From Patescibacteria group bacterium (lineage in GTDB: Bacteria; Patescibacteriota; Patescibacteriia; GWA2-46-9), in the NCBI GenBank assembly GCA_041675205.1, contig JBAYUF010000001.1, positions 20,863 through 84,862 of the forward strand: DNA of 64,000 nt, written 5' to 3'. Shown here in pieces: positions 15,643 to 60,073 of the stretch. A model generated the notes under the pieces. It made no database searches, had not been told where the DNA came from, and saw nothing but the letters and a program-made list of their open reading frames with translations. The translations under genes were made by a program, and so were the position numbers. Positions within the stretch are counted from its first letter, which is position 1. Every line of letters starts with the position of its first letter.

Positions 15643-15646
15643 CACG

Positions 15647-15673
15647 TTAGCACTCGCTTTTGTAGAGTGCTAT
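15647..15673 (+). promoter_or_regulatory. CIRCE operator (HrcA binding site) with an overlapping sigma70-like promoter for groESL
   Basis: TTAGCACTC-N9-GAGTGCTAT matches the TTAGCACTC-N9-GAGTGCTAA consensus. A TTGACA-N18-TAGAGT promoter at about 15639-15668 overlaps it. Confidence 0.7.
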
Positions 15674-15684
15674 CACGGTCGACG

Positions 15685-16040: not shown

Positions 16041-16058
16041 CATAACTCAATTCATTAA

Positions 16059-17699
<1,641 letters not shown>

Positions 17700-24231: not shown

Positions 24232-24263
24232 GTTTCGCCAGAGCGTATACTAGTTGCGTTAGA

Positions 24264-24288
24264 AAGACGGCAGCCAGCCGTCTTTTTT
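24264..24288 (+). terminator. Rho-independent terminator
   Basis: AGACGGC-agcca-GCCGTCT followed by TTTTTTG. Confidence 0.7.
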
Positions 24289-24370
24289 GCTATTGAAAAA
24301 AGTTGAGAAACGTGTTACAATGTATGCAGAAAATCAAAAAAATAAAGAAAAAATCAATATTATTACTTTT

Positions 24371-27300
24371 ATGATACAACGTTTTCTTGGCGGTCACCTT
24401 TTTCATACAGCAGAGGAGTTGGCGGTAGGCCGAAAAGTTTCGGCTAGAAATTTTGAAAATTCAGTAACGGCTAAATCTTACTTAGCTCGTTCGTTTTTTG
24501 TCGTTGGGTTACTTGTGGGTCTGGGTTTTATTTTTGCCGCGCCGACGCCAACCTATGCCGCAGCAAAAACATGGGATGGTGGCGGTGGTTGTGGCTCCGG
24601 CACGAACAGGTACGCATCCTGCGCAGGCAACTGGAATAGCAACACACTCCCAGTAGACGGGGATTCAATTAATTTTACCGATACAAATGGGTCGCAAGAA
24701 TTCTTATGGGACAATAATACATACGGGACCCTGCCAACAACGGTTGCCTCCTTTACTACCAACTACTATGGCTCAACAAACACCCTAACATTTCAGAAGT
24801 CATTAACAGTTACCGATGAATATCACGCCACGTCTAGTGCAGATAATGTAACGATTAATAGCGGGGTTACGCTAACGGCCGGTTATTTTTTTATAACAGA
24901 TGCAACGGTTACAAATAATGGAACGATTAAATTTACTTGTACCTACGGCACCACCTGTGGCGGGACTAGCCATGACGCTGCATTTTATGGTTCTGGCGCA
25001 CTTGCCTCATCAGCTTCAACTTCAATTGCTGAATATGCAGGTACAAATCAACCCGTATATAACGCCAATTATTACCATCTAAAAATATCTGGAACAGCCG
25101 TTAACTACGGTTTTCAAATTGCAAGTAATGGTCAAATATCAGGGAGCGGGACACTAACAGCTGGTACGGGGACAACCACGTTTAGTGGTAGCGGTACCAT
25201 CAATCTTCCTAACGCTGGATTTACAACGTTGTGGGTAGGTACCAGCGGTACGTTAACAGTTAATCAGAATATTTCAGTGTCAACTAGCATTGGTGCGGGT
25301 CCGTTTACTAGTGGGAATACAATCACCTACGGGGGTACTCCGACCCTCACTATGACCGGCGGTACAATTGCCGCAGCTTCTGTGGCAACCATGAATCTTT
25401 ATAATGTAACCATCGCTGGTGCCGGAGTGACCAGCACAGGGACCCCTAACATTGCAAACGCGTTTGTAGTTAATTCTGGAGCGACCTTTAGTGGTTCTAT
25501 GGCGAAGACCGGTGGTTCAATAACGAACAATGCTGCGACATCGAGCGCCCTAACGATTACGACCCTAGCGCTTACTTCAGGCACGATAACCACTGGTTCC
25601 AATTTTGATTTGTCGACGAGTATTTCTGGGGCGGGGAATTTCACTGCCTCGGCAGGTACCATTACCATGACCATGACAAGTGGCACGGCGATAGCAGCGG
25701 GTGCCGGCACACTGACATTCAATAGCGTTGCTATTGCTTCTGGCGCCACCGTTGCAACAGGTCGTAATTTTAGTGTGGCCGGTAACTGGACGAATAGCGG
25801 CGGAACATTTACGCCAAGCACGTATACCGTTACGTTGAGTGGGGCGGGCGGTTCTACCCAAGTCATCGCAGGTAATACAACCTTTTATAACCTTACGGCG
25901 ACAGCTGCTGCGGCTCGCACCATTCGATTTACCGCTGGCACTACCACTACAGTAACTGGCACGTGGACTGTCACTGGTTCAGCTTCTCAGTTAATAACTT
26001 TACAGTCTTCAACGACGAGTGCTTGGACTATTAACCCCACTGCGGCAAGCGTAAGTTACGCAAGCATTTCTTATTCGACCAATACCGGCGTGGCATTTTG
26101 CGCTACCTATTCTACCGACGGCGGCAATAACACAAGCTGGTCAATTGGAAGTGCCGCCAGTTGCGGCGCAACGATATCTGGTACGGTGTATTCGACCGAA
26201 GGTGGAGCAGGCATCACCGGCACACCAACGGTGCGTATTAAAGTAAATGGTGCTGGCACGTATAGCACAACGGCTAGTAGTGGCGTATTTAGCGTTTCTT
26301 CTGTCGTTGTAAATTCAGGCGATGTAATCACTGTCTATTTGGACACTAACGGTGGTAGCTCAGCAGCCCTCGTTACGGTTTCTGATGGTAGTAATACGTC
26401 GAGCCTCTCCCTCTATCAAAATCAGTTGGTCGTTCGTTATGAAACTGGTTCATCCATAACGAATACGAATCTTGGGCAATACGACAAGGATAACGATTCA
26501 GACATTCATTTTACTTCCAATGCCGGTGTACTGACCGTTGATAGCGATTACGAGTTGCATATTTGGACGGGTAAGACATTTGCACCAGGTGGCACCGTCA
26601 CGGCTAATGGCGATGTGCACATTATGGGTACCTATACCGCACCAGCGACTACGACCGTGGCTGGCAGCTTCACTAACGCTGGTACTTTTACTCCCGGCAC
26701 GGGAACACTGACCTTGTCTGGTACGAGTAAACAAATTACTGGTACCCCAACCAGTGAATCGTTCTATGACCTAACCATTTCAGGCACTGTAGCAAGTACT
26801 CGTAGTTTCACTGTTTCGCACACCATGACCGTAAACGGCACCTTTACACCAGGAGCAAGCGACGTTGTTACCTTAACGGGGGCAACGCTCACGGGGTCGG
26901 GGACAGTTAAAGTTACAAGAACGACAACTATCCCAGCATTCGTTAATCAATATGCCTACACCACCCCAGCGCCAACCTTAACAAATTTGACGGTTGACTA
27001 CAGTGGTACTAGTCAAATAGTAACGAACCTAACGTATTCGAACCTCATCGTTTCCGGAACTATTACAACAGGAACGCAAACAGCAACAGTGAGTGGACTC
27101 TTTACTGTTTCGGGTACGTTTACTCCATCAGCCGGAACGATAACGTTAAGTGGGACAAGCGGCACTGTTTTAACCGTCAGTGGTACACATGCACCAACCG
27201 GCACGGCTACGACCGTCTACAGTGGCGCCAATGCTGGCGGCAATACAAACGTTGCAGCGGCTACCTACAACAACCTTCAGGTGACCGGCGCTGACACCTA

Positions 27301-29998
27301 CGACCTCGCTGGGGACACAACTGTTTCGGGTGTCCTTACTATCGGCGGCTCAGCTACGCTCGACGGAAAGACTCGTACCATCACCCTCTCCGGCACTTCT
27401 GGTACACCCTTCGTCAAAACTGGTACCTTCACTCCTTCAACCTCAACCGTTGTCTACAGTGGTGCCAATGCTAGCAGTAACACCAACGTTGCAGCGGCCA
27501 CGTACAACAACCTCCAGGTTACTGGTAGCGACACCTACGACGTAGCAGGAGACACAACTGTTTCGGGGGTCCTTACTATTGGCGCAAACGCCACCCTAGA
27601 CGCCCAAACATACACAGTAACGCTATCTGGTTCTGGTACACCACTTGTAAAGACAGGTACATTTACCGCTTCAACCTCAACCGTAACGTATAGCGGTAGT
27701 TCACCTACCATTGCAGCGACTACGTATAACGTCTTGAATCTGTCTGGCTCTGGCACAGCAGTATTGCCGAGCGGTACCCTGGCAGTACTAGACTTAAATG
27801 TAACTACTGGAACAGTTTCTGCCGCGAGCAATAACCCAACCATTAACGTCAGTGGAAACATTGCATTGTCGAGTGGTGTTACCTATACAAAAGGTTCTGG
27901 TACTACGACGTTTTCTGGTGCCTCGAAGACAATTACTGACAGTACGGCTAGCGCACAGGATTTGGGTGTAGTTTCAATTTCTGGGACCTATGCTCTCTCG
28001 TCGAATGCTAAAATGACCAGCGTAGCCGGAGCCGGAGCATTAACAACGAATGCCAATACCCTAACGTTGACCGGTTCTGGTACCGTTTTGTCTGTTACGA
28101 CATTTACCGCTTCGACTGGTTCTACGGTTACCTATACCAGCGGAAGCGGTGCTTCTGTTGGTGCAAGGACCTACTACAATCTGACCATCAATGGTACGGG
28201 TACGTTCGCTGCGGCGGGTGCTATCATTGTGAATAACGATCTGACGGTGACCAGTGGAACCTTGGCCATGGATACGAGTAACCTACAAGTTGGTTTATCG
28301 AGTATCTCAAGTTCTGGTAGCGTTAAGGTTGCGGCAAGTCAATCGCTCACTCAATCAGCCAGTGGGACCACAACAATTCTTAGTTCGTCAGCCGGAGCAA
28401 ATTGTATTGGCTCCAATGGCTCCAATTGCAGTGGGACGGCAGGAACAATTACTCTTGGTGGCTTGTCGATTGGGGATGGAGTGTCAGGCAACTTCACAAC
28501 AACTCTTGCCGGAGATGTCACTATTGCTGGTGTCCTCACTATTGCTAGTACAAACACGCTCGACGGTTCGACTCGCACCATAACCCTCTCTGACACCTCT
28601 GGTACACCGTTCGTGAAAACCGGTACCTTCACCCCTTCAACCTCAACCGTTGTCTACAGTGGTGCCAATGCTGGCGGCAATACAAACGTTGCAGCGGCCA
28701 CGTACAACAACGTCCAGGTTACTGGTAGCGACACCTACGACGTAGCAGGAGACACAACTGTTTCGGGTGTCCTTACTATCGGCGCCTCGGCCACGCTCGA
28801 CGGTTCGACTCGCACTATCACTCTCTCCGGCACCTCCGGTACACCTCTTGTCAAAACCGGTACCTTCACCCCTTCAACTTCGACCGTTGTCTATAGTGGT
28901 GCCAATGCTAGCGGTAACACCAACGTTGCAGCGGCTACGTATAATAACCTCCAGGTTACTGGCAGCGACACTTACGACGTAGCAGGGGACACAACTGTTT
29001 CAGGGGTCCTTACCATTGGCGCCTCAGCCACGCTCGACGGTTCGACTCGCACTATCACTCTCTCCGGCACTTCTGGTACACCGCTTGTCAAAACCGGAAC
29101 CTTCACTCCTTCAACTTCGACCGTTGTATTTACTGGTGACAATGGTGGTGGAACAACAACCATTCCAACAGCAACCTACTACAATCTTACAGTGAACAAT
29201 GCGAGCGAAACGTATGCGCTTGGTTCGGGGAGTCCAGTGGTGAACAATGATTTAACTATTACTGCCGGTACCCTTGACCTCGACGCAAGTGACCCGTCGC
29301 TCTCAGTAAAGGGAGACGTGGTAATTGCCGGTACGCTCCTTGGTTCGGCTAGTAGCCCCCTCAATGTTGATGGTGACTGGACCAACAATGGTACATTCAC
29401 TCATTCAAACGGTACCGTTGCATTTACGAACAGTGCGGGGTTACTGGAAACGTCAAATATTGGTGGCTCAAACGGTACGAACTTCTACTCACTCAGCGTC
29501 ACTGCGAATGGAAAGTATCTTCGATTTGCGGCCGCCAAAACGTTTGGGGTTGCTGGTGTGCTGACGATTACGGGTGGTCAAGCTATTCCCGACAACATTC
29601 GTATTTTCTCAAGTACTGTCGGGGCTGGTTCAAGTAGTGATCAGTGGCTGCTTAATCTCACTGGTTCCTCGAATGTTCTCTTCGCGATTGTTCAGAACGC
29701 TGGCTGTGCGCCAGGGTCAAGTTCTGTGGCCTCGCACTCAACGAATACAAACGCCGGGAATAACAGTGCGTGTTGGCCCTTTGGTGTTCCTGGAGCGCCT
29801 GATGTGACTGGTGGTCGTTTTGATCAACCCGGCGGGGGTACGGCTACAACCGGCGGTACAAGCCTTAGTGGAGGTATTAGTGGTGGCGGAGGCGGTGGCG
29901 GAGCACCAAGTCCTGACCGACTTGATGAACCGGGTGGTGGCGCACCGACAACGGGTGGAACTGATCAAGGAAGTGGTGGTGGAGCACCTGCTCCGTAG
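24371..29998 (+). CDS. Giant surface repeat protein (about 1875 aa) with an N-terminal anchor and at least 5 copies of an 80-aa T/S/G-rich module
   Basis: Hydrophobic SFFVVGLLVGLGFIFAA. Repeated module TRTITLSGTSGTP(F/L)VKTGTFTPSTSTVVYSGANA..NTNVAAATYNN.QVTG.DTYD.AGDTTVSGVLTIG. Gly-rich C-terminus. The start is uncertain: the ORF-track 24287 and the ATG at 24320 both overlap the upstream terminator and a TGtTACAAT -10, so 24371 is plausible. Confidence 0.65.
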   Translation: MIQRFLGGHLFHTAEELAVGRKVSARNFENSVTAKSYLARSFFVVGLLVGLGFIFAAPTPTYAAAKTWDGGGGCGSGTNRYASCAGNWNSNTLPVDGDSINFTDTNGSQEFLWDNNTYGTLPTTVASFTTNYYGSTNTLTFQKSLTVTDEYHATSSADNVTINSGVTLTAGYFFITDATVTNNGTIKFTCTYGTTCGGTSHDAAFYGSGALASSASTSIAEYAGTNQPVYNANYYHLKISGTAVNYGFQIASNGQISGSGTLTAGTGTTTFSGSGTINLPNAGFTTLWVGTSGTLTVNQNISVSTSIGAGPFTSGNTITYGGTPTLTMTGGTIAAASVATMNLYNVTIAGAGVTSTGTPNIANAFVVNSGATFSGSMAKTGGSITNNAATSSALTITTLALTSGTITTGSNFDLSTSISGAGNFTASAGTITMTMTSGTAIAAGAGTLTFNSVAIASGATVATGRNFSVAGNWTNSGGTFTPSTYTVTLSGAGGSTQVIAGNTTFYNLTATAAAARTIRFTAGTTTTVTGTWTVTGSASQLITLQSSTTSAWTINPTAASVSYASISYSTNTGVAFCATYSTDGGNNTSWSIGSAASCGATISGTVYSTEGGAGITGTPTVRIKVNGAGTYSTTASSGVFSVSSVVVNSGDVITVYLDTNGGSSAALVTVSDGSNTSSLSLYQNQLVVRYETGSSITNTNLGQYDKDNDSDIHFTSNAGVLTVDSDYELHIWTGKTFAPGGTVTANGDVHIMGTYTAPATTTVAGSFTNAGTFTPGTGTLTLSGTSKQITGTPTSESFYDLTISGTVASTRSFTVSHTMTVNGTFTPGASDVVTLTGATLTGSGTVKVTRTTTIPAFVNQYAYTTPAPTLTNLTVDYSGTSQIVTNLTYSNLIVSGTITTGTQTATVSGLFTVSGTFTPSAGTITLSGTSGTVLTVSGTHAPTGTATTVYSGANAGGNTNVAAATYNNLQVTGADTYDLAGDTTVSGVLTIGGSATLDGKTRTITLSGTSGTPFVKTGTFTPSTSTVVYSGANASSNTNVAAATYNNLQVTGSDTYDVAGDTTVSGVLTIGANATLDAQTYTVTLSGSGTPLVKTGTFTASTSTVTYSGSSPTIAATTYNVLNLSGSGTAVLPSGTLAVLDLNVTTGTVSAASNNPTINVSGNIALSSGVTYTKGSGTTTFSGASKTITDSTASAQDLGVVSISGTYALSSNAKMTSVAGAGALTTNANTLTLTGSGTVLSVTTFTASTGSTVTYTSGSGASVGARTYYNLTINGTGTFAAAGAIIVNNDLTVTSGTLAMDTSNLQVGLSSISSSGSVKVAASQSLTQSASGTTTILSSSAGANCIGSNGSNCSGTAGTITLGGLSIGDGVSGNFTTTLAGDVTIAGVLTIASTNTLDGSTRTITLSDTSGTPFVKTGTFTPSTSTVVYSGANAGGNTNVAAATYNNVQVTGSDTYDVAGDTTVSGVLTIGASATLDGSTRTITLSGTSGTPLVKTGTFTPSTSTVVYSGANASGNTNVAAATYNNLQVTGSDTYDVAGDTTVSGVLTIGASATLDGSTRTITLSGTSGTPLVKTGTFTPSTSTVVFTGDNGGGTTTIPTATYYNLTVNNASETYALGSGSPVVNNDLTITAGTLDLDASDPSLSVKGDVVIAGTLLGSASSPLNVDGDWTNNGTFTHSNGTVAFTNSAGLLETSNIGGSNGTNFYSLSVTANGKYLRFAAAKTFGVAGVLTITGGQAIPDNIRIFSSTVGAGSSSDQWLLNLTGSSNVLFAIVQNAGCAPGSSSVASHSTNTNAGNNSACWPFGVPGAPDVTGGRFDQPGGGTATTGGTSLSGGISGGGGGGGAPSPDRLDEPGGGAPTTGGTDQGSGGGAPAP
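27211..27710. repeat. Tandem array of about 240-bp units (2+ copies) inside the giant gene
   Basis: Direct repeats at about 90% nucleotide identity that encode the 80-aa module. They are related to the second array at 28520-29140. Confidence 0.8.
28520..29140. repeat. Second tandem array of about 240-bp units (about 2.5 copies) inside the giant gene
   Basis: Near-identical units starting near 28560, 28800 and 29040. Confidence 0.8.
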
Positions 29999-42194: not shown

Positions 42195-42566
42195 ATGACT
42201 CGTCGGACTGAGCAAGTAAGTGCAGAGTTAGCAACACTTATTGGTCGCTACCTCCTTGAGCAACCCGACGAATTAGATGGGGCATTGTGCACTATTACAC
42301 GGGTGGAAACCACGCCGGACTTAGCGCATGCACTCGTTTTTGTGAGCATTTTACCGGATCAGCGGCGAGGAAGTGCGTTGGCGGTACTACGGCATTTTCA
42401 GCGACCATTTGCGAAACGACTCTTTCATGATTTGACCATGAAAGTAATTCCACGAATTCATTTTCATATTGACGACGTCTTCGTGCGAGCGAATGCAATG
42501 GAGACGTTACTAAATCAAGTAGCGGCTGAGCTTCCTCCACTTGAAGATGTCGCAGAGAAGCCATGA
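42195..42566 (+). CDS. rbfA: Ribosome-binding factor A
   Basis: RTEQVSAELATLIGRYL and a KH-like fold, in the conserved position after infB. A TATAAA-N6-ATG lies directly upstream. Confidence 0.8.
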   Translation: MTRRTEQVSAELATLIGRYLLEQPDELDGALCTITRVETTPDLAHALVFVSILPDQRRGSALAVLRHFQRPFAKRLFHDLTMKVIPRIHFHIDDVFVRANAMETLLNQVAAELPPLEDVAEKP

Positions 42567-43534
42567 CCTTTAATGCTTTTCGAGAAGCGGCCGATACCCT
42601 TCGCGCCTCGCGTAATCCGCTTATCATTCTTTTGCGGGATGTCGATGCGGATGCGCTCGGCACCAGTATGGCGGTGGCCCGGGCAGTTGCCCAGCAGGGT
42701 GCCCACGTTACGCTCTACTGTGGTGAACCTATCCCGGCCAATTTAGCTTTTCTGTTAGACGCTGCATTCCCTATTTCGACGACGTTGTCGCAGAGTGTCT
42801 TGGCGGCAACTGATGCGATAGTCGTTGCTGATGCCGGCGCTTTAGAAAGAACGGGTGTGGCCGAGGAAGTACGCGCATGTGTTGCACGGGGGGTTCCACT
42901 AATCAATATCGATCACCACCAAGTCGCGGCTGCGTTTGGCACCATCAATCTCGTTGATGCTGGCGCGTCTGCCGCTGCGGTTTTAGCCTACGACCTCATT
43001 AAACTTGGTGGGTGGATTATTGATCGTGATATGGCCACGGCAATATTGGCTGGAATCGTTGCTGACACCGGTAATTTTTCGAATGGCGGCACCACTATCC
43101 GCGCATTGGAAGTGGCGGCGCACTGTTACGCAACTGGTGCCGAATCACGATTAGTCATTCGCGCGCTCTACAATTCAAAACCGGTGAATGCTTTGAAGCT
43201 GTGGGGAGAAATTCTCTCACGGCTGACAAAGCATGAACGTCTTGGCATAGCGAGCACGGTAATTCTTGATGACGACTTTGAAAAGTACGCTATTGATGAA
43301 GAGTCTACCGAAGGGCTCGCTAATTTTTTGAATGGTCTTAGTGACGTGAAAGCCGCACTTATTTTAAAGCAGCTACCGAATAACGAGATTCGTGGCAGCC
43401 TGCGTACAACCAGAGACGATGTTAATGTGGGTAAATTAGCACAGGCCCTTGGTGGTGGCGGTCATCGAAAGGCTGCCGGATTTACTATACCAGGTCGCAT
43501 AGTTCGTTTTAAAAATGGTTGGAAAGTTGTTTAA
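42563..43534 (+). CDS. DHH/DHHA1 phosphoesterase (NrnA-like oligoribonuclease / pAp phosphatase)
   Basis: DHH N-domain (DVDADALGTSMAV, IDHH) and DHHA1 GGGHRKAAGF. ATGA overlap with rbfA. Confidence 0.8.
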   Translation: MTFNAFREAADTLRASRNPLIILLRDVDADALGTSMAVARAVAQQGAHVTLYCGEPIPANLAFLLDAAFPISTTLSQSVLAATDAIVVADAGALERTGVAEEVRACVARGVPLINIDHHQVAAAFGTINLVDAGASAAAVLAYDLIKLGGWIIDRDMATAILAGIVADTGNFSNGGTTIRALEVAAHCYATGAESRLVIRALYNSKPVNALKLWGEILSRLTKHERLGIASTVILDDDFEKYAIDEESTEGLANFLNGLSDVKAALILKQLPNNEIRGSLRTTRDDVNVGKLAQALGGGGHRKAAGFTIPGRIVRFKNGWKVV

Positions 43535-43569
43535 AAGTTGCCACGGGCAGAAGAGCGGACTATCCTAGT

Positions 43570-43632
43570 AGCCATTAGCCATTAGCCATTAGCCATTAGC
43601 CATTAGCCATTAGCCATTAGCCATTAGCCATT
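43570..43632. repeat. Perfect heptanucleotide microsatellite (AGCCATT)x9 that ends 5 nt before the clpP ATG
   Basis: Nine uninterrupted copies, 63 bp, in the nrnA-clpP intergenic region. Confidence 0.9.
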
Positions 43633-43637
43633 CTATT

Positions 43638-44228
43638 ATGGTTCTTATTCCAACGGTCATAGAAAAATCAAATTTTGGTGAGCGAGCATATGATATTTAC
43701 TCTCGTTTACTAAAAGAGCGAATTATATTTCTTGGAGATGTTATTGATGATCACGTTGCCAATACGGTCATCGCGCAACTTTTATTTCTAGATTCGGATA
43801 ATTCAAAGAAGGATATAAAATTGTATATCAATTCACCTGGTGGCTCGGTAACGGCTGGGCTCGCAATATACGACACGATGCAGTACGTCAAAGCAGATGT
43901 CTCCACCATTTGTATAGGGTTGGCGGCGAGTATGGGGGCGGTACTGCTTGCGTCAGGCGCTAAAGGGAAGCGTTACATTTTACCTAATGCCGAAGTGATG
44001 ATTCATCAAGTGATGGGGGGTGCTGAAGGTCAGGCATCGGACGTTAAAATTCGAGCTGAGCATATCGTCCGAATCAAAGATCGTCTCAACGCTATTTTGG
44101 CAGGCCACACGAATCAACCAGTAAAGAAGGTGGAGCAAGATACGGATCGTGATCGATTCATGACAGCCAAGGATGCACATCAGTATGGCATTGTCGACAA
44201 AATAATTACTTCATCGCCGAAAGCGTAG
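43638..44228 (+). CDS. clpP: ATP-dependent Clp protease proteolytic subunit
   Basis: [19 protein letters not shown]...[19 protein letters not shown] with the catalytic Ser/His/Asp context. Confidence 0.95.
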
Positions 44229-44497
44229 AGTGGCTAGTAGGGTGTATTGTTAAGGCATCTGGAGCACTTGGGGCCTTGCGATAATGGTATTTTGGTGGTA
44301 TAGTTTCGCCGCAACGTTTCCTTTACCTATCCTCGAACATTCATTCGTTCCGAAACGGAATTGGTGATCGGCAGATTCATTTTCATGGCTTCTATTCCTG
44401 TTGTACGTGATTGATTGCCACCGACGCATCGTGCGCTTCGGTCTTGTGTGCACCAACTAAAAAGTTCGGTACGGGGGTGTTCGTTTACGAACACACT

Positions 44498-46114: not shown

Positions 46115-46498
46115 ATGAACGCGACGCATCTTGCAACAGAGGAAAAATTTAAAGATTTGCGGGTGTGGCAGCAAGCCCACGAGTTAACACTTTTGGTGTA
46201 TAAGATAACAAAAAGTTTCCCTGACACGGAGCGTTTTGCCTTAGTAAGCCAAATGCGTCGTGCAGCAATCTCAGTGGTTGCCAATATTGTCGAAGGGTCT
46301 AAACATCGTACAACGAAGGATCGTATTCATTTTCACGTTATAGCAAATGGCTCGCTCGAAGAGTTAAAATACTACTTCATTTTATCGTTAGATCTCGGAT
46401 TCATTAACCAGAAAGAGCAGGAAGACTTACTTGATTTGGCGAGAGGCGTTGGTGCTATGTTACATGGTCTTACTAATGCTCTGCGCAGTGGCGTATAG
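46115..46498 (+). CDS. Four-helix-bundle protein of the TIGR02436 family (23S rRNA intervening-sequence protein type)
   Basis: LRVWQQAHELTLLVYKITKSFPDTERFALVSQMRRAAISVVANIVEGS is the family signature; 127 aa. Confidence 0.85.
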   Translation: MNATHLATEEKFKDLRVWQQAHELTLLVYKITKSFPDTERFALVSQMRRAAISVVANIVEGSKHRTTKDRIHFHVIANGSLEELKYYFILSLDLGFINQKEQEDLLDLARGVGAMLHGLTNALRSGV

Positions 46499-48677: not shown

Positions 48678-50231
48678 TTGAATTTTAAGTATAGGAAGAG
48701 AAGTAAATTGGTACGATTTATGACACCACATTATTTAAATGACAAAGATCCCTGGTTACTGGGAGAGAATATTCCTGACTCAGATATTTTCTTTTTTCAA
48801 ATTGTCTTCTCGTCATTTACAAACGACAGAAGTTACTCGTTCATTAAAAAGTACAAGAAAGTAATAGCTCCGTACGATAAATTTAATATGAGTTTCTATT
48901 TTGGAGAGAGAGATTCGTATCTTGTTGCGGAGAGCGTATTAAGGGCTTTGATAGAGCGTCCAAAGTTTGCCACAGAGCTAAATCGTAATATTGTTGCCTG
49001 GTCCAAAAAACTTATGCTATTTGCGCGTAGGGTAGCAAGAAAACCTTTGCATAAATTTTCAAATACGGCATTGTGGCGGTTATATGATGAACATGATCGT
49101 GTGCATACCAAGCTATACACGTATGGATGGTTGCCAGTGTCGGTCGATATGTTTCACAACAATATGACCACTGAGCTAAAGCGACGCTTGGCAAAAGTCT
49201 GTACATCGAGTCAAGAAGTCAACGAAGCTTTTGTTTTACTTACGACTCCTTCACAAAAAACAATTATTGCCAAAGAGCGTGAAGAGTTTTTGGCGATTTA
49301 TACTAAAGCAAAACCATATCTAAGAAAGAGTGTTACTGCTGTTGCATTTCCGCTAAGCCTTCAGAGACTCTGTCGTCGACATCAGCAGCGCTGGGGGCAT
49401 CTTGGATATATTTACGCCGGTAATGTAGAGCCGTTTTCGGTGCAATATTATATTCAAGAGATGGTTGATCTTAAGCGAAGCAACATAGAGGTAAGTAGTT
49501 TATTGATAAAAGAAAAAAGCCAATTGCTGGAAGCAGTGCGTAAGCAAAAAGCATTTTATAAAAAAAATAAGATGTCTCCTGAAGATGTGCGTTTATTTGC
49601 CGCCGCGAGAGATTTTTCAATAAGTAAACTTTTTCGCCGCCACGCCCAGCTGCTTGATCTTTATCTTCTGCACAAAAGCTTATTATCAGAAATTGCTCAG
49701 CGCCTTAGCCTGACACGTTTTCAGGTCCAGTTTATGTTGAAAGACGAAATAAAGGCGGCGCTTATCAATGGCAAAGTTGATGACTCCTTGTTGTCTGAGC
49801 GTTTAAAACAGGGCGTTTATTATACGGAGCCGGGTCTTGAAACTGTTTACACGGGCCGCAAGGCACGAGTCTTGGCTAAGGCGCTTGCTAGTGTTGGCAT
49901 TGGTGAAGGGGACGAAGTTACTGGTCAAACGGCCCAACCGGGTTATGCAAAAGGTGTTGTGAAAATTATTATTCGGGCGAAGGATATCGCAAAGATGAAT
50001 AAAGGTGACATTTTGGTGTCTATCGCTACTGACCCTGATATTGTGCCAGCCATGAAAAAAGCCGGAGCGATTGTTACTGATCAGGGCGGCATAACGTCGC
50101 ATGCCGCAATTGTAAGTCGAGAGCTAAATAAGCCGTGCGTGATAGGAACTAAATATGGCAGTAAGATTTTTAAAGACGGCGATATTGTTGAAGTAGATGC
50201 AACGAACGGGATTGTAAGAAAAGTTACTTAA
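48678..50231 (+). CDS. PEP-utilizing-enzyme swivel (phospho-His) domain protein, paralog A: unknown 400-aa N-terminal domain plus C-terminal mobile His domain
   Basis: C-terminal GDILVSIATDPDIVPAMKKAGAIVTDQGGITSHAAIVSRELNKPCVIGT is the PEP-utilizers (PF00391) signature with the catalytic His. TTG start (alternative ATG at 48720). AT-rich. Confidence 0.65.
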   Translation: MNFKYRKRSKLVRFMTPHYLNDKDPWLLGENIPDSDIFFFQIVFSSFTNDRSYSFIKKYKKVIAPYDKFNMSFYFGERDSYLVAESVLRALIERPKFATELNRNIVAWSKKLMLFARRVARKPLHKFSNTALWRLYDEHDRVHTKLYTYGWLPVSVDMFHNNMTTELKRRLAKVCTSSQEVNEAFVLLTTPSQKTIIAKEREEFLAIYTKAKPYLRKSVTAVAFPLSLQRLCRRHQQRWGHLGYIYAGNVEPFSVQYYIQEMVDLKRSNIEVSSLLIKEKSQLLEAVRKQKAFYKKNKMSPEDVRLFAAARDFSISKLFRRHAQLLDLYLLHKSLLSEIAQRLSLTRFQVQFMLKDEIKAALINGKVDDSLLSERLKQGVYYTEPGLETVYTGRKARVLAKALASVGIGEGDEVTGQTAQPGYAKGVVKIIIRAKDIAKMNKGDILVSIATDPDIVPAMKKAGAIVTDQGGITSHAAIVSRELNKPCVIGTKYGSKIFKDGDIVEVDATNGIVRKVT

Positions 50232-50236
50232 ATAAT

Positions 50237-51709
50237 GTGACTCAAAAAGGAAAACAAGAGTGGATACTAGGAAACGAGGAGGAGGGCGTTAGCCCGTGGT
50301 CCTTGGGTGTTTTTACGCCAGCCTTTCGTTTTGGTGTTGCTCGTCGCGCTCAATATTCCATCCCACACTTCATTGTGTTTGAAGGTACTCATATGCGTTG
50401 GATACCTAGTAAAAAAGATACAGAACAACTCTCAGAAAGGTTATTGAAGAAACAAATAAAAAATCAAAATTACCTTACGTTTGTGAGCCATCAATCGGTC
50501 AAATCTTGTGATAGATTGTATGACTTTTCTGATAAATGTTTAGAATATAATTACAGCCCTCTTAGCAATAAAGAGTTCGCCAACTTTTTTATCAATCACG
50601 AAAAGTTAGTTAGGGATGTTCTTGGTTGGGGCGTACTCCCGGCCTTAATGGATATTCCGCGCCCGGTGCTTTCCGATTACGCTACAGAGCTGCTATCTAA
50701 AAGAATTCGCCAGTTAAAGTTAATGGATTCTTCGGCCGATTGTTTTGCCAGCTTAACTGCGGATATTGATAATAATATTCAACGGCAAGAACGGTTAGCT
50801 TTAAAACGATTGGCCGTTGTGATTTACAAAAATCAGAAAAATGTAGAGGAGCGAATAAAAAAACATATAGCCAAATTTTCTTGGGCTTACTACGGATATA
50901 TTGGGCCAATACTTAATGCTGGCCATGTAAAAAAGGAACTTAAAAGGTTGTTTAAAGAAATTAAAAAAACAGAAAAAGAATTAAAACAATTGCCACACGA
51001 AAAAAGACAAATCAAAAAAAAGCGATTGGAAATGGAACGTAAGTTAAAATTGACCACAGCCGAGCGTAAACTTTTTGAAGGAATGAGAGAAGTGATGATT
51101 ATGAAGGCTGCTCGTCGTGATGCCTTGTCTTATTCTTTTTATGCTATGCAAGGCGCACTTCAAGAGCTTGCTCGGCGGTCTGGTGTGTCAATTAATCATA
51201 TTCAAAACGTAGCTCCTTGGGAGCCGTCGTTACTGCTTCAAGGTAATTCTGATTTAAAAAAGGAATTACCAAAACGAAGTAAGATTTGTATTCTCGATGG
51301 AACTACTGTTAAACTTCGCGTTTTGTCTGGTGTCAAAGCAAAACAGTTTTTAAAGCAAAATTATAAGTCTGAAGTAGTAAAAAACAGTAAGGAGTTAAAA
51401 GGTCAGGTTGCCTGTGTAGGTATGGCTAGAGGTAAGGTAAAAATTGTTAATACGCCGTCTGACATGGTCAAGATGAAGCAAGGGGACATTCTTGTTTCTA
51501 TTGCCACCACACCGGATATTGTGAGTGCTATGCGTAAAGCGGGAGCCATTGTAACGAATACTGGGGGTATTACCTCTCATGCGGCAATTGTGTCTCGGGA
51601 GCTTAATGTTCCCTGCGTGATAGGTACGAAGTTTGCAACCCAGGTATTTAAAGATGGTGATATGGTTGACGTGGATGCAAACAAGGGAATCGTGAGACGG
51701 ATTAAATAA
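50237..51709 (+). CDS. PEP-utilizing-enzyme swivel-domain protein, paralog B
   Basis: C-terminal GDILVSIATTPDIVSAMRKAGAIVTNTGGITSHAAIVSRELNVPCVIGT. The N-terminus aligns with paralogs A and C (K.EWILGNEEEG..PW.LGVF). GTG start. Confidence 0.65.
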   Translation: MTQKGKQEWILGNEEEGVSPWSLGVFTPAFRFGVARRAQYSIPHFIVFEGTHMRWIPSKKDTEQLSERLLKKQIKNQNYLTFVSHQSVKSCDRLYDFSDKCLEYNYSPLSNKEFANFFINHEKLVRDVLGWGVLPALMDIPRPVLSDYATELLSKRIRQLKLMDSSADCFASLTADIDNNIQRQERLALKRLAVVIYKNQKNVEERIKKHIAKFSWAYYGYIGPILNAGHVKKELKRLFKEIKKTEKELKQLPHEKRQIKKKRLEMERKLKLTTAERKLFEGMREVMIMKAARRDALSYSFYAMQGALQELARRSGVSINHIQNVAPWEPSLLLQGNSDLKKELPKRSKICILDGTTVKLRVLSGVKAKQFLKQNYKSEVVKNSKELKGQVACVGMARGKVKIVNTPSDMVKMKQGDILVSIATTPDIVSAMRKAGAIVTNTGGITSHAAIVSRELNVPCVIGTKFATQVFKDGDMVDVDANKGIVRRIK

Positions 51710-51719
51710 CTAGCAGTTT

Positions 51720-53240
51720 ATGGCATCAAAAAAAGATTGGTATGTTTGGGGTGAGTGGCCAGGAATTCCCTGGTTCAATAGTTGTTATATGTACACTCTT
51801 TCGTTAGATCTTTCAAAACGTACTGGTATACCAATTACACATTTTGCGACTGATTATAAAGAAGGGGTTCAACGCGTTTATTTGTTACGGCATGAATGGG
51901 AAAATGGTGGATTTTTGTATCTCAAAAAAATTCTCAGGAATCCTAATAGTTTAATCAAAGCGTTGGAGTCTATTGAGAGTAATGCAAAGAAATTAAAAGA
52001 GTTTAATAGCGAGGTACGGAAAATTGCAGTGGAAGCTTGCACATTGAATGAGTTGGCAACATTGTGTCATCGGTTTCACAAAATTAACCATGAATTATGG
52101 TCTGCGGGGATGGTTCCCAATTTATTAGAATTAAACCAAGCGCACCTTTCGGGTTATTTGCGCGGGTATATTAACAAACAAACTAAATCAGATATTTCTG
52201 CAGATGACTGGCAAATTTTGATTACGCCAACTAAAAAGTCGGCGGCCCAACAGGAAGAACTTTCGTTACTCTTGCTTGCTAATAAGATTTCAAAGAACAT
52301 CAAGTTGAGACAGTTGTTTGAACGCAAGCAAAATGACGTTTCTGAAGCAATCGAGCTTTTACATTTTCCAAAGATTAAACAAGAAATTCGTCAGCATTAC
52401 CAGAAATATAAATGGTTACAATTTGGATGGACTGGCCCAGATTCTACTCCTGAACAACTAATCGGACGATTGGCGGCCCTACTTCACGAAGGTTATGTTT
52501 CAACCTGCCTTCAGGACAAAATTCAGGCGGAACAAGTAGTAGCAAGGAAACAAAAATCATTGCTGTCGTCGATTGGCGTTGATAGAGAACATCGACAGTT
52601 GTTACAGTTACTTCAACGAATATTATTTGTAAAGACAGTACGCATGGATGCGCTTTACGAAGGTTACTCAGCCTTTCATCCGGTAGTACAGGAGATTGCT
52701 AAGCGTTTTTCACTTTCCTTGAATCAGCTTTATATGGTGTACCTTGGTGATTTAGAACATGCGGTGAGAACAAAATCCTTTGACCATGAAAAATTAAATG
52801 CACGTTCCCGTTATTCTGCGTGTATTAAACAGAACGATCGTCTTGTATTTTACAGTGGTGAGCAAGCCCATAAGAAAATGAGCTTAATAATTTCAAGTTT
52901 ACCCAAGGTTAAAAAAACCCATACAGTTAGTGGTGAGTGTGGGTATCCGGGGAAGATCAGTGGTGTAATTAGGTTCGTTCCGACATCGAAGGATATGTAT
53001 AAAGTAAAAAAGGGAGATATTTTATTATCCCAAGCAACTGACCCGTCTTTTTTGCCGGCCATGGAAAAGGCTGCTGGCTTTGTTACGGATTTGGGTGGCT
53101 TAACAGCTCATGCCGCTATTGTCGCTCGTGAAATGAAAAAACCTTGCGTGGTTGGTACAAAAATTGCCACAAAGATTTTTAAGGATGGCGATATAGTTGA
53201 AGTGGACGCAAGTAGGGGGATTGTTAAGAGAATAAAGTAG
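51720..53240 (+). CDS. PEP-utilizing-enzyme swivel-domain protein, paralog C
   Basis: C-terminal GDILLSQATDPSFLPAMEKAAGFVTDLGGLTAHAAIVAREMKKPCVVGT. Confidence 0.65.
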   Translation: MASKKDWYVWGEWPGIPWFNSCYMYTLSLDLSKRTGIPITHFATDYKEGVQRVYLLRHEWENGGFLYLKKILRNPNSLIKALESIESNAKKLKEFNSEVRKIAVEACTLNELATLCHRFHKINHELWSAGMVPNLLELNQAHLSGYLRGYINKQTKSDISADDWQILITPTKKSAAQQEELSLLLLANKISKNIKLRQLFERKQNDVSEAIELLHFPKIKQEIRQHYQKYKWLQFGWTGPDSTPEQLIGRLAALLHEGYVSTCLQDKIQAEQVVARKQKSLLSSIGVDREHRQLLQLLQRILFVKTVRMDALYEGYSAFHPVVQEIAKRFSLSLNQLYMVYLGDLEHAVRTKSFDHEKLNARSRYSACIKQNDRLVFYSGEQAHKKMSLIISSLPKVKKTHTVSGECGYPGKISGVIRFVPTSKDMYKVKKGDILLSQATDPSFLPAMEKAAGFVTDLGGLTAHAAIVAREMKKPCVVGTKIATKIFKDGDIVEVDASRGIVKRIK

Positions 53241-53248
53241 TATTTAGT

Positions 53249-53277
53249 TTGACAAATCACTAATAAAAGGGTATAAT
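53249..53277 (+). promoter_or_regulatory. Perfect-consensus sigma70 promoter TTGACA-N17-TATAAT upstream of the histidine-phosphatase-like gene
   Basis: TTGACA aatcactaataaaaggg TATAAT, 29 nt before the ATG at 53306. Confidence 0.6.
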
Positions 53278-53305
53278 TGCTTTATTAAATTTAAATAAGA
53301 TTATT

Positions 53306-54193
53306 ATGTTTCACGAAAATTCATTTTCCGAGGCGCACAGAGAAGCAAAAGATGAAGGGAGAGAAAAAGGGAAAAATGTTTCTGTACAGTTTGTTTTTAG
53401 ACGTCATGAGGAGCCAGGAAAGACTCCAACAGGTATGTCAGCAGATTTTTTAACTGAGAAAGGAATCGCTGGTGCGAAGCAGCGTGGACATGACTTAGCA
53501 AACAGTGGTGAGTACGTAATGTTTTTTGGTAGTAAAGGTGTTCAACGGGCACGTGAGACCGCGGGGCATATGATTGGCACATTTCGTGATGAAGCAGGGG
53601 CTGCTGCACTTATTAATAAGCCAATGACAGCAGAGGATCAGCAACGTGCAGGTCATGGTGAATTACCGCCCGGAGACGTTGCTATTTATCGATCGAGTGA
53701 TCTTAATCCTGTTCCTAATTTTGCCAAAATAAATGAAGCAGCAAAAGCTGAGGGGGCAAAGACGATAGATGAGAGCGTGCAGTACTGGTTGGATAATCCT
53801 GAAAAGGCAAAAGAGTTGGCTGCGGGAACCCCAGAGGAAACGGCTGCTGAGTTGGCACACCGATTGGGTCTTGGTATAAAAATGTCGGGGAAATTATACG
53901 AAGACACGAACTTAAGAGTGGAGAATTTGACTCATGGTCCGAAGCTCGAAGCGTTACTACATGAAGTAATGATTGATGATACTGGCAAACGGGGGTTTGG
54001 CCGACTCGAAGAGATGGGAGGAATGTTTCAACCAGGTGAAGATGTAAATTTGGCAATTCATCGTAATGATGAAGGGGAACTAGATCTAGGTGGTATAGAC
54101 TTTCGTGGAAAACACTATGGTGTAGATATGGAGCGTCTTGATGAGTTGCGAGACCTTTACAGGAAAATGCAGGAAGAAAAACGTAAAAAGTAA
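53306..54193 (+). CDS. Histidine phosphatase superfamily (PGM/SixA-like branch) protein, divergent
   Basis: FVFRRHEEPGKT resembles the RHG[EQ] catalytic motif with G replaced by E. FFGSKGVQRARETAG resembles the SPLxRAxQTA motif, and a later AGHGE region is present. Confidence 0.45.
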   Translation: MFHENSFSEAHREAKDEGREKGKNVSVQFVFRRHEEPGKTPTGMSADFLTEKGIAGAKQRGHDLANSGEYVMFFGSKGVQRARETAGHMIGTFRDEAGAAALINKPMTAEDQQRAGHGELPPGDVAIYRSSDLNPVPNFAKINEAAKAEGAKTIDESVQYWLDNPEKAKELAAGTPEETAAELAHRLGLGIKMSGKLYEDTNLRVENLTHGPKLEALLHEVMIDDTGKRGFGRLEEMGGMFQPGEDVNLAIHRNDEGELDLGGIDFRGKHYGVDMERLDELRDLYRKMQEEKRKK

Positions 54194-54209
54194 CAATTAA
54201 TTTCGAATC

Positions 54210-55181
54210 ATGTTCAGTAAGGTATTTGAGGAGATAACAAAAAAAAACGTTAAAGAAGCCGGAGGCAAAGGTGCATCATTGGGTGAAATGACCCACCTTC
54301 TCCAAGGATTCGGCGGGCAAGCCCACGGAGTGGTGCCGCCGGGTTTTGTTGTTCTGGCCGGTGCCTTTGATAGATTTCTGAAAGAAACTAATCTGAATCT
54401 TAAGATTGAAGCTGTTCTCAAAAAAGTAAAATCTAAGGATTTAAATTCAGTTGAAGTTGCCTCAGAAAAAATCAGAGCTCTGATGGAACGGGAGAAAATA
54501 CCAAAAGATATTCAGGTAGAAATTAAGGAATCATATCAAACGTTGAGCAAAGGAAGGGCTATGTTTGTGGCAGTTCGCTCGTCTGCCACCGCGGAAGATT
54601 CTAAGGCTGCTTCTTGGGCAGGGGAACTCGAAACGTATTTGAACGTCACAGAGAAAAATCTCATGCAGTCGGTCATGAAATGCTGGTCGTCATTATTTAC
54701 GCCGCGAGCTATTTTTTATCGCTTTGAGAAAAAGCTTCATCGTACCCCTGTTTCAGTCGCTGTTGTGGTGCAGCAAATGGTTCAGTCTGAAGTGTCAGGC
54801 ATTGCGTTTACTGTTCATCCAGTAACAAAGGATTACAACCAAATGGTTATAGAAGCGGGGTTTGGTCTTGGTGAGGCAATTGTATCTGGGCAAGTAACGC
54901 CAGATACGTATGTCATAGACAAAAAGAAATTTGGTCTTCTTGATATCAATGTATCAACACAAAAATTTAAAATTGTGAGAGGGCCGAAAGGCAACAGTGA
55001 TAAAAAATTGAGTGAGGCCGCGGGTAGTAAACAAAAACTAACTGGTAAAGAAATTATTGAGTTAGCTAAACTGTGTGTAGCTATTGAGAAGCATTATAAA
55101 CATCCGCAAGACATCGAGTGGGCTTTTGTAAAAGGAAAATTTTACATTACGCAGTCGAGGCCGATTACGACGCTCGGTTAA
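54210..55181 (+). CDS. Stand-alone PPDK_N (PEP synthase / rifampin phosphotransferase-type ATP-binding) domain protein
   Basis: KEAGGKGASLGEMTHLL...VPPGFVVLAGAFDRFLKE and later AVRSSATAEDSKAASWAGELETYLNV match Pfam PPDK_N (PF01326). There is no fused His or PEP-binding domain. Confidence 0.75.
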   Translation: MFSKVFEEITKKNVKEAGGKGASLGEMTHLLQGFGGQAHGVVPPGFVVLAGAFDRFLKETNLNLKIEAVLKKVKSKDLNSVEVASEKIRALMEREKIPKDIQVEIKESYQTLSKGRAMFVAVRSSATAEDSKAASWAGELETYLNVTEKNLMQSVMKCWSSLFTPRAIFYRFEKKLHRTPVSVAVVVQQMVQSEVSGIAFTVHPVTKDYNQMVIEAGFGLGEAIVSGQVTPDTYVIDKKKFGLLDINVSTQKFKIVRGPKGNSDKKLSEAAGSKQKLTGKEIIELAKLCVAIEKHYKHPQDIEWAFVKGKFYITQSRPITTLG

Positions 55182-58820: not shown

Positions 58821-60073
58821 AGTCCACCAACAAACTCTTCGAACGTTGTTTCCTTTTGAGGAATTTTTTCAGCCGATAATGGTAGGGTAAAAATCATTCG
58901 AGTTCCTTTTCCTTCGTCTGACTCGGCATGGATGTCGCCGCCGTGGTTCTTGACGATGTTTTTCACAATGAAAAGTCCTAAGCCAGAACCCTCTGTTTGC
59001 ATTCGCACGACGTTGTCACCTCGAAAGAATTTGGTGAAAAGTCGATGCATCTGGTGTTTCGGAACCCCAACGCCGTGGTCTTCAATCGTAATCTCCGCAT
59101 GATCGGTATACTTCTTTACGCGGACATCAATTAATCCGCCCGGCTGAGAGTATTTGATTGCGTTCTCAATGAGGTTTTGCAGTACGAGCTCCATTTTTGC
59201 TGGATCAATCTGTAGGGGCGGGAGGGTGAAGTTCGGCTTGTCGTAGGCAAGGCTTACCCCGTGCGCGGCTGCCTCAACACGGAACCGCTCAATAGCCTTT
59301 TCGAGGTAGTCGAGCATATCAGTTGCTTGGAAAACATAACCGAAACGTCCTTCTTCAATACGGGCGACGTTGAGTAGATCACCAACGAGCCGAATCATTC
59401 GCTCATTTACTTTGTATCCACGATCGAGAAAGTCACGCTGTTCTTGACTAAGTGGGCCAATATCTCCATCACCGAGCATTTTCATTGTCCATTTTACTGC
59501 TGACAGTGGGGTGCGCAATTGGTGAGCCGCAATCGAGATGAATTCTGATTTCATTTGGCTAATGAGCTGTTCGCGTCGACGTTGGACTTCCAGTCGATCA
59601 ATCATGACGTTAAAGGCCTCGGTTAATTCAGCGATTTCATCTCGCGACGTCGGCTTTAGTCGATACTGCAGATCGCCCTCACCAACCAGGTGCGTCAGAC
59701 GGACGAGTCGTTTGAGTGGGCGAACGAGAGAAGCAGAAATAATACTTCCAGCAAAAATGACCATAATAACCACAAGCACCAGAATAAGTATGTTCTGGGC
59801 CAAGAGTACTTGTTCGATTTGGCTGACACTGCTCTCTGGCAAGAATTGGCGAATGGAGCTTTGGTAGATGGTAACGGTTAACCCCGCAGAAATTGCGATT
59901 GGTGTTACCGATAGCATGAAAAAAGTTATGAGGATGCGCAAAAAAACAGAGCGTCGGCTCACGCCGAGCGTTGGCGTTGCCGGTAGTTTGGGCAGCGGTA
60001 CTTCTGCGCTCAGGTCAACCGTGAACGGGTTTTTTAGTGCTTCCGTTTTTGGTATCACTTCATTGGTTGGCAT
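58817..60073 (-). CDS. Sensor histidine kinase (2 TM, HAMP, HisKA, HATPase_c)
   Basis: H-box SIAAHQLRTPLSAV. N, G1 and G2 boxes (NLIENAIKYS, DHGVGV, GSGLGLFIVKNIV). No response regulator gene in the window. Confidence 0.9.
   Translation of the reverse strand: MPTNEVIPKTEALKNPFTVDLSAEVPLPKLPATPTLGVSRRSVFLRILITFFMLSVTPIAISAGLTVTIYQSSIRQFLPESSVSQIEQVLLAQNILILVLVVIMVIFAGSIISASLVRPLKRLVRLTHLVGEGDLQYRLKPTSRDEIAELTEAFNVMIDRLEVQRRREQLISQMKSEFISIAAHQLRTPLSAVKWTMKMLGDGDIGPLSQEQRDFLDRGYKVNERMIRLVGDLLNVARIEEGRFGYVFQATDMLDYLEKAIERFRVEAAAHGVSLAYDKPNFTLPPLQIDPAKMELVLQNLIENAIKYSQPGGLIDVRVKKYTDHAEITIEDHGVGVPKHQMHRLFTKFFRGDNVVRMQTEGSGLGLFIVKNIVKNHGGDIHAESDEGKGTRMIFTLPLSAEKIPQKETTFEEFVGGL

Follow-up and report, generated by a model that had tools for sequence, protein, structure and literature searches.

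A perfect heptanucleotide repeat tract upstream of clpP in a Patescibacteria genome, read as a probable young slippage expansion in a short 5' leader

Introduction

How should a perfect heptanucleotide repeat be read when it ends a few nucleotides before the start codon of a housekeeping protease gene? The question is raised by a 64,000-nt stretch of DNA (here called the window) from a Patescibacteria group bacterium (GCA_041675205.1, contig JBAYUF010000001.1, positions 20,863 to 84,862), in which nine AGCCATT units stand between nrnA, a phosphoesterase gene, and clpP, which encodes the proteolytic subunit of the ATP-dependent Clp protease. An original prediction, made from the letters of the window, proposed that the repeat is prone to slipped-strand mispairing and might control clpP through its copy number or, alternatively, serve as an array of binding sites. 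Here we argue that the tract is most probably a young slippage expansion in the clpP leader, tolerated by the cell and affecting expression in a graded manner at most, a reading to which we assign a probability of roughly 60%.

Results and Discussion

The repeat tract is perfect, intergenic, and real

Tandem Repeats Finder (TRF) reported a repeat of period 7 at 43569-43632, with 9.1 copies, 100% matches, and a score of 128. Sequence reading confirmed the predicted arrangement of nine perfect units (43570-43632) followed by CTATT and the clpP ATG at 43638, which leaves 5 nt between the array and the start codon. The flanking genes were also as predicted, with Pfam DHH and DHHA1 domains encoded upstream and a Clp protease domain (E = 2e-84) downstream; the array lies between the nrnA stop, ending at 43534, and the clpP ATG. 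It had further been stated that the array fills almost the whole nrnA-clpP space, which is an overstatement: the array accounts for 63 of the 103 bases, with 35 nt free upstream of it and the 5 nt of CTATT downstream. The spacer between the nrnA stop TAA (43532-43534) and the array reads aagTTGCCAcgggcagaagagcggacTATCCTagt. Together with the following AT, CTATT resembles a degenerate repeat unit (CTATTAT versus CCATTAG, 5/7).

The tract shows the properties of a bacterial heptanucleotide simple sequence repeat (SSR): it is intergenic and consists of head-to-tail 7-nt units, in more than the minimal three copies and far above chance. The 14-mer dimer is confined to the array, where it has 8 overlapping matches versus 0.47 expected from shuffles, and the observed count was reached in 0/100 shuffles. 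The clpP tract was the only period-7 array found by TRF within the window, and a period scan of the same 64 kb (periods 5 to 12, at least 3 units) revealed no array besides it. Slipped-strand mispairing is plausible in such a genuine, perfect heptanucleotide SSR.

The tract was recovered in an independent assembly. In the Logan assembly (k = 31) of SRR6484325, nrnA and clpP, both identical to those of the window, are located on two contigs that end 29 nt and 28 nt inside the repeat. Since these contigs stop inside the repeat, the tract is longer than k and comprises at least 5 units; the exact unit number of nine comes from the source assembly alone. We conclude that the repeat is real and not an artefact of a single assembler. 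In practical terms, assemblies built with a short k are interrupted by the tract right at clpP.

The array would lie downstream of a candidate clpP promoter

The ATG at 43638 is the true clpP start, because an in-frame TAG is present upstream at 43611-43613 and the N terminus is conserved, ClpP aligning with its relatives residue for residue from residue 1. A translated N-terminal extension of ClpP was considered and rejected, since only ATT codons lie between this TAG and the ATG and the N terminus is conserved.

Contrary to the claim that no room is left for a conventional promoter outside the repeat, the 35 nt upstream of the array harbor a sigma70-type candidate, TTGCCA-17-TATCCT (P1; 43538-43566), which is located entirely upstream of the array, ends 3 nt before it, and is placed as in the nearest relatives. 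Promoter-like matches near the tract were not above chance (7 sites versus 5.4 expected), and P1 alone is a weak match. It is supported because its position matches that of the relatives' promoters (TTTACC-17-TAGGAT in L086 and L087); the -35 hexamer starts 3 nt past the nrnA stop in the window and 1 nt past it in L087. A weak 11-nt periodicity (TTTAAAAGTTG x3, 72% matches) at 43508-43540 covers the last nrnA codons and the first spacer bases and overlaps the -35 hexamer. With the usual distance of ~7 nt to the -10 hexamer, transcription would start at about 43571-43574, inside the first repeat unit. Of the prediction that the repeat forms the promoter, the 5' untranslated region (UTR), or both, the 5' UTR part almost certainly holds, and the promoter part does not, as P1 is upstream and a repeat-internal site misses the ATG (see below).

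This geometry also bears on phase variation. The array is downstream of the -10 hexamer of P1, neither between -35 and -10 nor within an open reading frame (ORF). A change in unit number would not shift the spacing of the promoter elements, as had been suggested, since the array is outside the -35/-10 interval, and on/off phase variation through promoter spacing is unlikely for the same reason.

The nearest relatives carry no repeat

The gene order around the tract, infB-rbfA-nrnA-clpP-rny, is kept in the six nearest relatives, whose ClpP proteins are 84-88% and whose NrnA proteins are 55-65% identical to those of the window. Their nrnA-clpP spacers are 23-76 nt long, none of the six contains a repeat, and a -10-like hexamer is found 6-22 nt from the ATG (Table 1). 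The array is thus a lineage-specific insertion into an otherwise leaderless or near-leaderless gene. All nine units are 100% identical, compared to 69-85% for arrays in other lineages, and this identity indicates that the array is recent or still expanding.

In reference genomes, the closest ClpPs (at most 79% identical) are all from metagenome-assembled genomes (MAGs) of Patescibacteria, also known as the candidate phyla radiation (CPR). The relatives of the nrnA product are named NrnA by NCBI, and the nearest of them include a Candidatus Uhrbacteria MAG. Among 5.8 billion proteins, the exact NrnA formed a one-member cluster, the next relative being 65% identical. A junction pattern fit to catch any allele of the locus matched 0 metagenome contigs, a result that represents missing data and not evidence of stability.

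Table 1. Features around the clpP repeat tract of the window, nrnA-clpP spacers of the six nearest relatives and the window, and period-7 arrays upstream of clpP in other Patescibacteria
Locus	Feature	Position	Strand	Evidence or detail
Window	(AGCCATT)x9 perfect heptanucleotide microsatellite	43570..43632	+	Sequence reading, TRF, shuffles, RNA folds, relatives
Window	CTATT spacer, array to start codon	43633..43637	+	Sequence reading
Window	-35 hexamer TTGCCA of putative clpP promoter P1	43538..43543	+	Promoter scan 9/12, 17-nt spacer
Window	-10 hexamer TATCCT of P1	43561..43566	+	Promoter scan and sequence reading
Window	nrnA-type DHH/DHHA1 phosphoesterase gene, last of the infB-rbfA-nrnA run, stop TAA 43532-43534	42563..43534	+	Pfam DHH 4e-12, DHHA1 7e-11
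Window	clpP, 196 aa, ATP-dependent Clp protease proteolytic subunit	43638..44228	+	Pfam CLP_protease 2.2e-84
L088	nrnA-clpP spacer 27 nt, no repeat			TGcTATAAT, then 6 nt to ATG
L087	nrnA-clpP spacer 39 nt, no repeat			TTTACC-17-TAGGAT, then 9 nt to ATG
L086	nrnA-clpP spacer 76 nt, no repeat			TTTACC-17-TAGGAT, then 9 nt to ATG
L213	nrnA-clpP spacer 23 nt, no repeat			CATACT, then 9 nt to ATG
L214	nrnA-clpP spacer 59 nt, no repeat			TATAAT, then 12 nt to ATG
L212	nrnA-clpP spacer 51 nt, no repeat			TATACT, then 22 nt to ATG
Window	nrnA-clpP spacer 103 nt, (AGCCATT)x9			TATCCT, then 71 nt to ATG (8 nt if array removed)
L017	TTTTAAC/TTTTGAC x8	2441-2495		8 nt to ATG
L018	AGAAGTA x3.6 and inverted TAACTTC x5	2429-2494		
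L004	GAATTNN arrays and inverted TAATTCN arrays	2432-2495		
L025	GAATTNN arrays and inverted TAATTCN arrays	2406-2482		
L016, L055	TTAGAAA			
L023	TTTTGAC			
L067	GCTARNN			
L030	TTTACTN			
L032	CAAAATT			
L037, L077	A/T-rich period-7 units			

The genome is poor in Shine-Dalgarno motifs, and the leader is predicted to be unstructured

The lack of a Shine-Dalgarno (SD) sequence before clpP had been used as an argument for a special role of the repeat. It is uninformative. Among 48 crudely called genes of the window (GC content, 0.48), only 4 have an SD-like motif, defined as an unbroken match to at least 4 bases of AGGAGGT no more than 20 nt from the start, and a missing SD before clpP is therefore unremarkable. 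The organism is essentially without SD pairing. In addition, the 0-12 nt in front of the start codons of the window genes contain -10-like hexamers at about double the frequency seen further upstream. Examples are TATACT-6-ATG (gene at 56181), TACAAT-6-ATG (60060-60821, minus strand), CATAAT-6-ATG (18224), and TAGGAT-9-ATG (2059-3225, minus strand). Many genes with such a hexamer 6-10 nt before the start suggest widespread leaderless or near-leaderless mRNAs.

The clpP leader transcribed from P1 would be ~65 nt long and would consist almost wholly of (AGCCAUU)n. RNA folds of the leader gave z scores of +0.66 and +0.67 versus shuffles, and the centroid of the 100-nt fold has no pairs in the array. 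These folds, together with a spacer that contains no terminator-like site, led us to discard a terminator or a structured leader. Rfam detected only two tRNAs at gathering score in the window and nothing near the tract. The seven triplets of the array are AGC, GCC, CCA, CAU, AUU, UUA, and UAG; every frame lacks AUG, GUG, and UUG, and each of the three contains UAG. In an SD-independent host, such a tract should permit initiation at the downstream AUG, and this compatibility may be the reason for its tolerance.

Period-7 arrays recur upstream of clpP in Patescibacteria

Next to the six nearest relatives, we considered a set of 80 clpP loci from Patescibacteria that had been selected only by protein similarity. 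In many of these lineages, period-7 repeats built from quite different units are located shortly before clpP (Table 1). The lag-7 excess reached 0.15 or more in 10/80 of the 90-nt segments upstream of clpP versus 4/252 further non-coding segments from these loci (Fisher p = 1.7e-4), a comparison that involves small numbers, non-independent lineages, crude gene calls, and a clpP spacer that tends to be longer than most. The excess was specific to lag 7; it was not seen for the other lags from 4 to 12. Inverted array pairs (L004, L018, and L025) are predicted to form long hairpins interrupted every seventh base (z scores of -4 to -5), and direct arrays are unstructured, with a minimum free energy of 0 for L017 and z = +0.67 for the window. 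The clpP promoter region may be a slippage hotspot, or heptad periodicity may be used at clpP. The clustering could point to unknown regulation of proteolysis in CPR bacteria.

Heptamer arrays were also noticed inside long ORFs, with the frame open through both: AAGTTAA x4.9 in L055 (5446-5479) and GTTATGT x4.7 in L018 (3869-3901). The L055 ORF has an S4-like C-terminal region and may encode a tyrosyl-tRNA synthetase.

AGCCATT is not a special repeat family

As a repeat unit, AGCCATT does not stand out. Three tandem units matched 3 viral contigs, compared to 5, 15, and 1 for the composition-matched controls ACTGCAT, ATCGACT, and CATCGTA, respectively, and 107 for TAACTGA, a recognised family; the idea of a special AGCCATT family was dropped. 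In metagenomes, AGCCATT arrays of at least 4 units were detected in at least 120 contigs; among the matches listed, the GC content ranged from 0.32 to 0.69 and the copy number from 4 to 17. With a crude ORF caller, no consistent placement of these arrays relative to ORF starts was seen, 15 being forward and 25 reverse of the 83 arrays listed. AGCCATT has expanded independently many times, as expected for an over-represented SSR class (PMC4692102). Heptanucleotide tracts had been called rare in bacteria, which is wrong in view of these contigs and of the survey by Rehm (2015), where heptamers are an over-represented class of long SSRs that is intergenic and differs in copy number between close species (PMC4692102).

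One sample, Ga0114939, contributed at least 12 contigs of low GC content (0.33-0.41) with AGCCATT arrays of 5-17 units (L107, L112, L113, L116, L125, L130, L132, L147, L152, L153, L170, and L171, with two arrays each in L113 and L125). This suggests an organism whose genome carries AGCCATT throughout as a repeat family.

A young, tolerated slippage expansion is the favored explanation

The explanation we favor runs as follows. The ancestral clpP would have been leaderless or near-leaderless, with its promoter 6-22 nt from the ATG as in the relatives; deletion of the array restores a distance of 8 nt. Within this very short 5' leader, replication slippage would have produced a young heptanucleotide microsatellite. 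The gene would be transcribed from its own sigma70-type promoter, P1, with the whole array included in the leader. The insertion would be tolerated, since the genome starts translation without SD pairing and the unit is presumably harmless, having no predicted structure, no start codon, and UAG in every frame. As its units are perfect, the array probably remains prone to gains and losses of 7 nt at a time. An effect, if there is one, would be graded, with leader length influencing ClpP output as described for hmw1A and hmw2A of Haemophilus influenzae, and would not amount to an on/off promoter switch. Our best estimate is that the array is neutral or only mildly modulating. If this is correct, a microsatellite can arise in the narrow gap that separates a promoter from the start codon and turn a leaderless-type essential gene into a leadered one, a change that the cell evidently tolerates.

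Several points weigh against this explanation. A leader added to a leaderless-type gene is expected to alter translation, so that neutrality is an assumption. The enrichment of period-7 arrays upstream of clpP in other Patescibacteria hints at more than neutral slippage there. Copy-number polymorphism is without an observation, the species being represented by a single sample. P1 is a weak consensus match of a kind that is not above chance in the region, and its start position is deduced, not mapped. Finally, clpP could be read through from the infB-rbfA-nrnA operon, and a scan of the spacer revealed no terminator-like site between nrnA and clpP; the array would then be an intercistronic spacer, still present in the mRNA.

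Known heptanucleotide systems offer partial precedents

The closest mechanistic precedent, by analogy, would be hmw1A and hmw2A of H. influenzae, where (ATCTTTC)n starts at the -10 of the P2 promoter and forms part of the transcribed 5' UTR, more units resulting in less transcript and protein (PMC8262952; PMC2651432). Both systems have a perfect 7-nt array beside the driving -10, located in the 5' UTR (in our case putatively), and steps of 7 nt in this position cannot shift the reading frame. In the window, 43566 is the last base of the putative -10 and 43570 the first base of the array, the promoter position being backed by the relatives and the start site deduced from it. However, the hmw tracts consist of 13-38 units, are located 69-106 bp before the gene, and are followed by a ribosome-binding site, whereas the window tract ends 5 nt from the ATG without such a site. 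Moreover, the hmw genes encode surface adhesins under immune selection and clpP is a housekeeping gene, and polymorphism with an effect on expression has been demonstrated for hmw but is hypothetical for the window locus.

In anatomy, the closest precedent is provided by the TAACTGA heptamers of marine Beggiatoaceae, cyanobacteria, and some Bacteroidetes, for which a role in translation was proposed (MacGregor 2015, PMC4679880). Like the AGCCATT tract, these are forward direct arrays that end a few nucleotides from an SD-less start codon, also before essential genes, with no predicted RNA structure and with stop codons in all frames. The placement of our array, 5 nt before an ATG without SD, is of this type, but the whole genome is SD-poor, so the lack of SD is not a gene-specific trait. 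The differences are considerable: TAACTGA is one unit that recurs, in 2-6 copies, at each of about 170 loci per genome, whereas AGCCATT forms one array of 9 copies in 64 kb; the unit itself is another; and TAACTGA arrays were ~35 times more common in the viral collection.

A third group comprises the SSRs surveyed in PMC4692102, such as the cyanobacterial STRR repeats, GGGAATC of Xanthomonas, and GGGGAYT of Nostoc, one Nostoc array adjoining clpP. Some of them form inverted pairs, as do the arrays of several Patescibacteria relatives. They are G-rich, quadruplex-prone, and genome-wide, with roughly 90-190 arrays per genome, whereas AGCCATT has one G per unit, no quadruplex potential, and a single locus in the window; Patescibacteria are not among the taxa described. 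We regard the tract as a heptanucleotide SSR in a promoter-proximal leader, which is a known kind, and assign it to neither the hmw nor the TAACTGA family.

A possible copy-number rheostat at clpP

By analogy with hmw, a graded rheostat acting through leader length is possible. In its strong form, the tract would be an adaptive contingency locus in which units change frequently, leader length sets the ClpP dosage, and selection keeps the repeat; we consider this form unlikely. It draws on the hmw1A-like geometry, with an SSR right after the driving -10 in a 5' UTR where more units mean less expression (PMC8262952; PMC2651432), on a perfect 9-unit tract in the mutable range, and on the period-7 arrays upstream of clpP in other Patescibacteria (10/80 versus 4/252). 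However, length polymorphism was not observed, which is an absence of data and not a negative result. The gene also fits poorly, as contingency loci are typically surface, restriction-modification, or host-interaction genes and clpP is a housekeeping gene. Furthermore, the six nearest relatives do without any repeat, and a single SSR in 64 kb does not suggest a genome organised around SSR switching. If the length does vary, the locus would be a natural experiment on SD-independent translation as a function of leader length in an uncultivated bacterium with a reduced genome, and a second 5' UTR heptamer rheostat after hmw, here on a housekeeping protease.

More far-reaching is the proposal that period-7 arrays are a recurrent, selected 5' feature of clpP across Patescibacteria, occurring in two forms, as inverted hairpin pairs and as direct arrays abutting the start codon. 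We regard it as quite doubtful. If such selection existed, ClpP would be governed by an undescribed regulator that reads heptads, or else these reduced genomes would share a conserved mechanism that sets the dosage of their main protease through slippage. The window array would be the youngest and cleanest example of the feature.

A proposed binding-site array

The original prediction also offered a binding-site array. The heptads could be read by a DNA-binding repressor of clpP similar to CtsR, or by an RNA-binding factor that controls translation. The latter might be S1, Csp, or CsrA, which were put forward for TAACTGA, or a protein that reads UAG-N4 in the manner of HutP. We consider these possibilities, even taken jointly, improbable.

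HutP recognises UAG triplets with UAG-N4 spacing, and the unit as RNA reads UAG-N4, nine times in succession. CtsR is a heptad-reading repressor of clpP in Firmicutes, where clpP is its classic target, and the CtsR box consists of two (A/G)GTCAAA heptads, 3 nt apart, which overlap the promoter. The array shares with this operator the direct heptad repeats immediately upstream of clpP, and some relatives have units resembling TTTGACT/AGTCAAA. Period-7 elements are enriched at clpP, and the array shares with TAACTGA arrays an end only a few nucleotides from the start codon (PMC4679880).

However, the sequence of the array is not that of a CtsR operator, a candidate that we rejected: AGCCATT matches the half-site at 4/7 positions, and the nine units abut with a period of 7, not 10, downstream of the -10, in contrast to two spaced heptads. 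A repeated recognition sequence is not apparent either. Outside the array, single AGCCATT copies in the window are at chance level (9 versus 9.35 expected), as are dimer-like sites with at most 3 mismatches (5 versus about 4 expected), and no AGCCATT dimer with at most 2 mismatches exists elsewhere in the window. The units are wholly different between lineages, and no array exists in the nearest relatives. Pfam scans of window proteins revealed no member of the CtsR, HrcA, HutP, or ClpX families, and in the literature we found no paper connecting CtsR with CPR. The other stress operon of the window, groES-groEL (15747-17699), has no heptads; it is preceded at 15641-15674 by a canonical controlling inverted repeat of chaperone expression (CIRCE), TTGACA-cg-TTAGCACTC-N9-GAGTGCTA, with the inverted repeat at about 15648-15674. 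Judged by the inverted repeat TTAGCACTC-N9-GAGTGCTAA, an HrcA/CIRCE operator is absent from the clpP spacer and was rejected for this gene. Heat-shock control in this CPR genome appears to operate via HrcA/CIRCE, without heptads, and not at clpP. In summary, the binding-site proposal found no support.

Separately, locus L006 contains, right after the rny stop (5493-5525), the abutting heptads AGTCAAA, GGTCAAA, and AATCAAA, followed by a GC-rich hairpin; we take these heptads to equal the CtsR half-site consensus.

Remaining alternatives

That the tract or its length was made by the assembler is highly improbable. Short-read assemblies are prone to collapse or expand tandem repeats, and the figure of nine comes from one assembly. 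However, the k = 31 assembly enters the repeat by 28-29 nt from both unique flanks and then breaks, as it would at a real tract longer than k, and 63 nt can be spanned by ordinary reads of 100-150 nt.

A promoter formed by the repeat itself, with a -35-like TAGCCA inside the array, a -10 TATTAT over the ATG, and a geometry set by copy number, is scarcely credible: the scan does list TAGCCA-17-TATTAT (43611-43639, 9/12 matches), the sole promoter-like site that uses repeat sequence, but we rejected it, as its -10 overlaps the ATG and transcription would start ~7 nt inside the ORF, past the ATG, with no in-frame ATG, GTG, or TTG nearby and a ClpP N terminus conserved from residue 1, while the -35, being a repeat unit, would keep the same spacing at any copy number of at least 4, and promoter-like matches in the region are at chance level.

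Additional observations in the window

Downstream of clpP, a promoter of rny, TTGCGA-17-TGgTATAGT (44276-44304), and the sequence just after it (GGTAYAGTTKCGCCGC) are kept in the relatives L086 and L087. The rny ATG is located at about 44498 according to the Logan gene call, which implies a long conserved rny leader of ~190 nt. Between rny and ymdB, at 46115-46498, lies a gene for a 23S rRNA-intervening-sequence protein (four-helix bundle, bAvd-like). It looks like an insertion, ymdB following directly after rny in L087.

Further downstream, 48678-53240 is occupied by a tandem of three paralogous ORFs, each about 500 aa long and ending in a PEP-utilizers mobile domain. They are followed by an unannotated ORF and then by a separate PPDK_N (AMP/ATP-binding) protein at 54210-55181, so that 48678-55181 represents an unusual split and multiplied arrangement of phosphoenolpyruvate (PEP)-utilising enzymes. 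Finally, two adjacent giant ORFs of 1850 and 1903 aa occupy 18679-29998, and the second of them contains a 237-nt tandem repeat (28555-29144; 2.5 copies, 89% identity).

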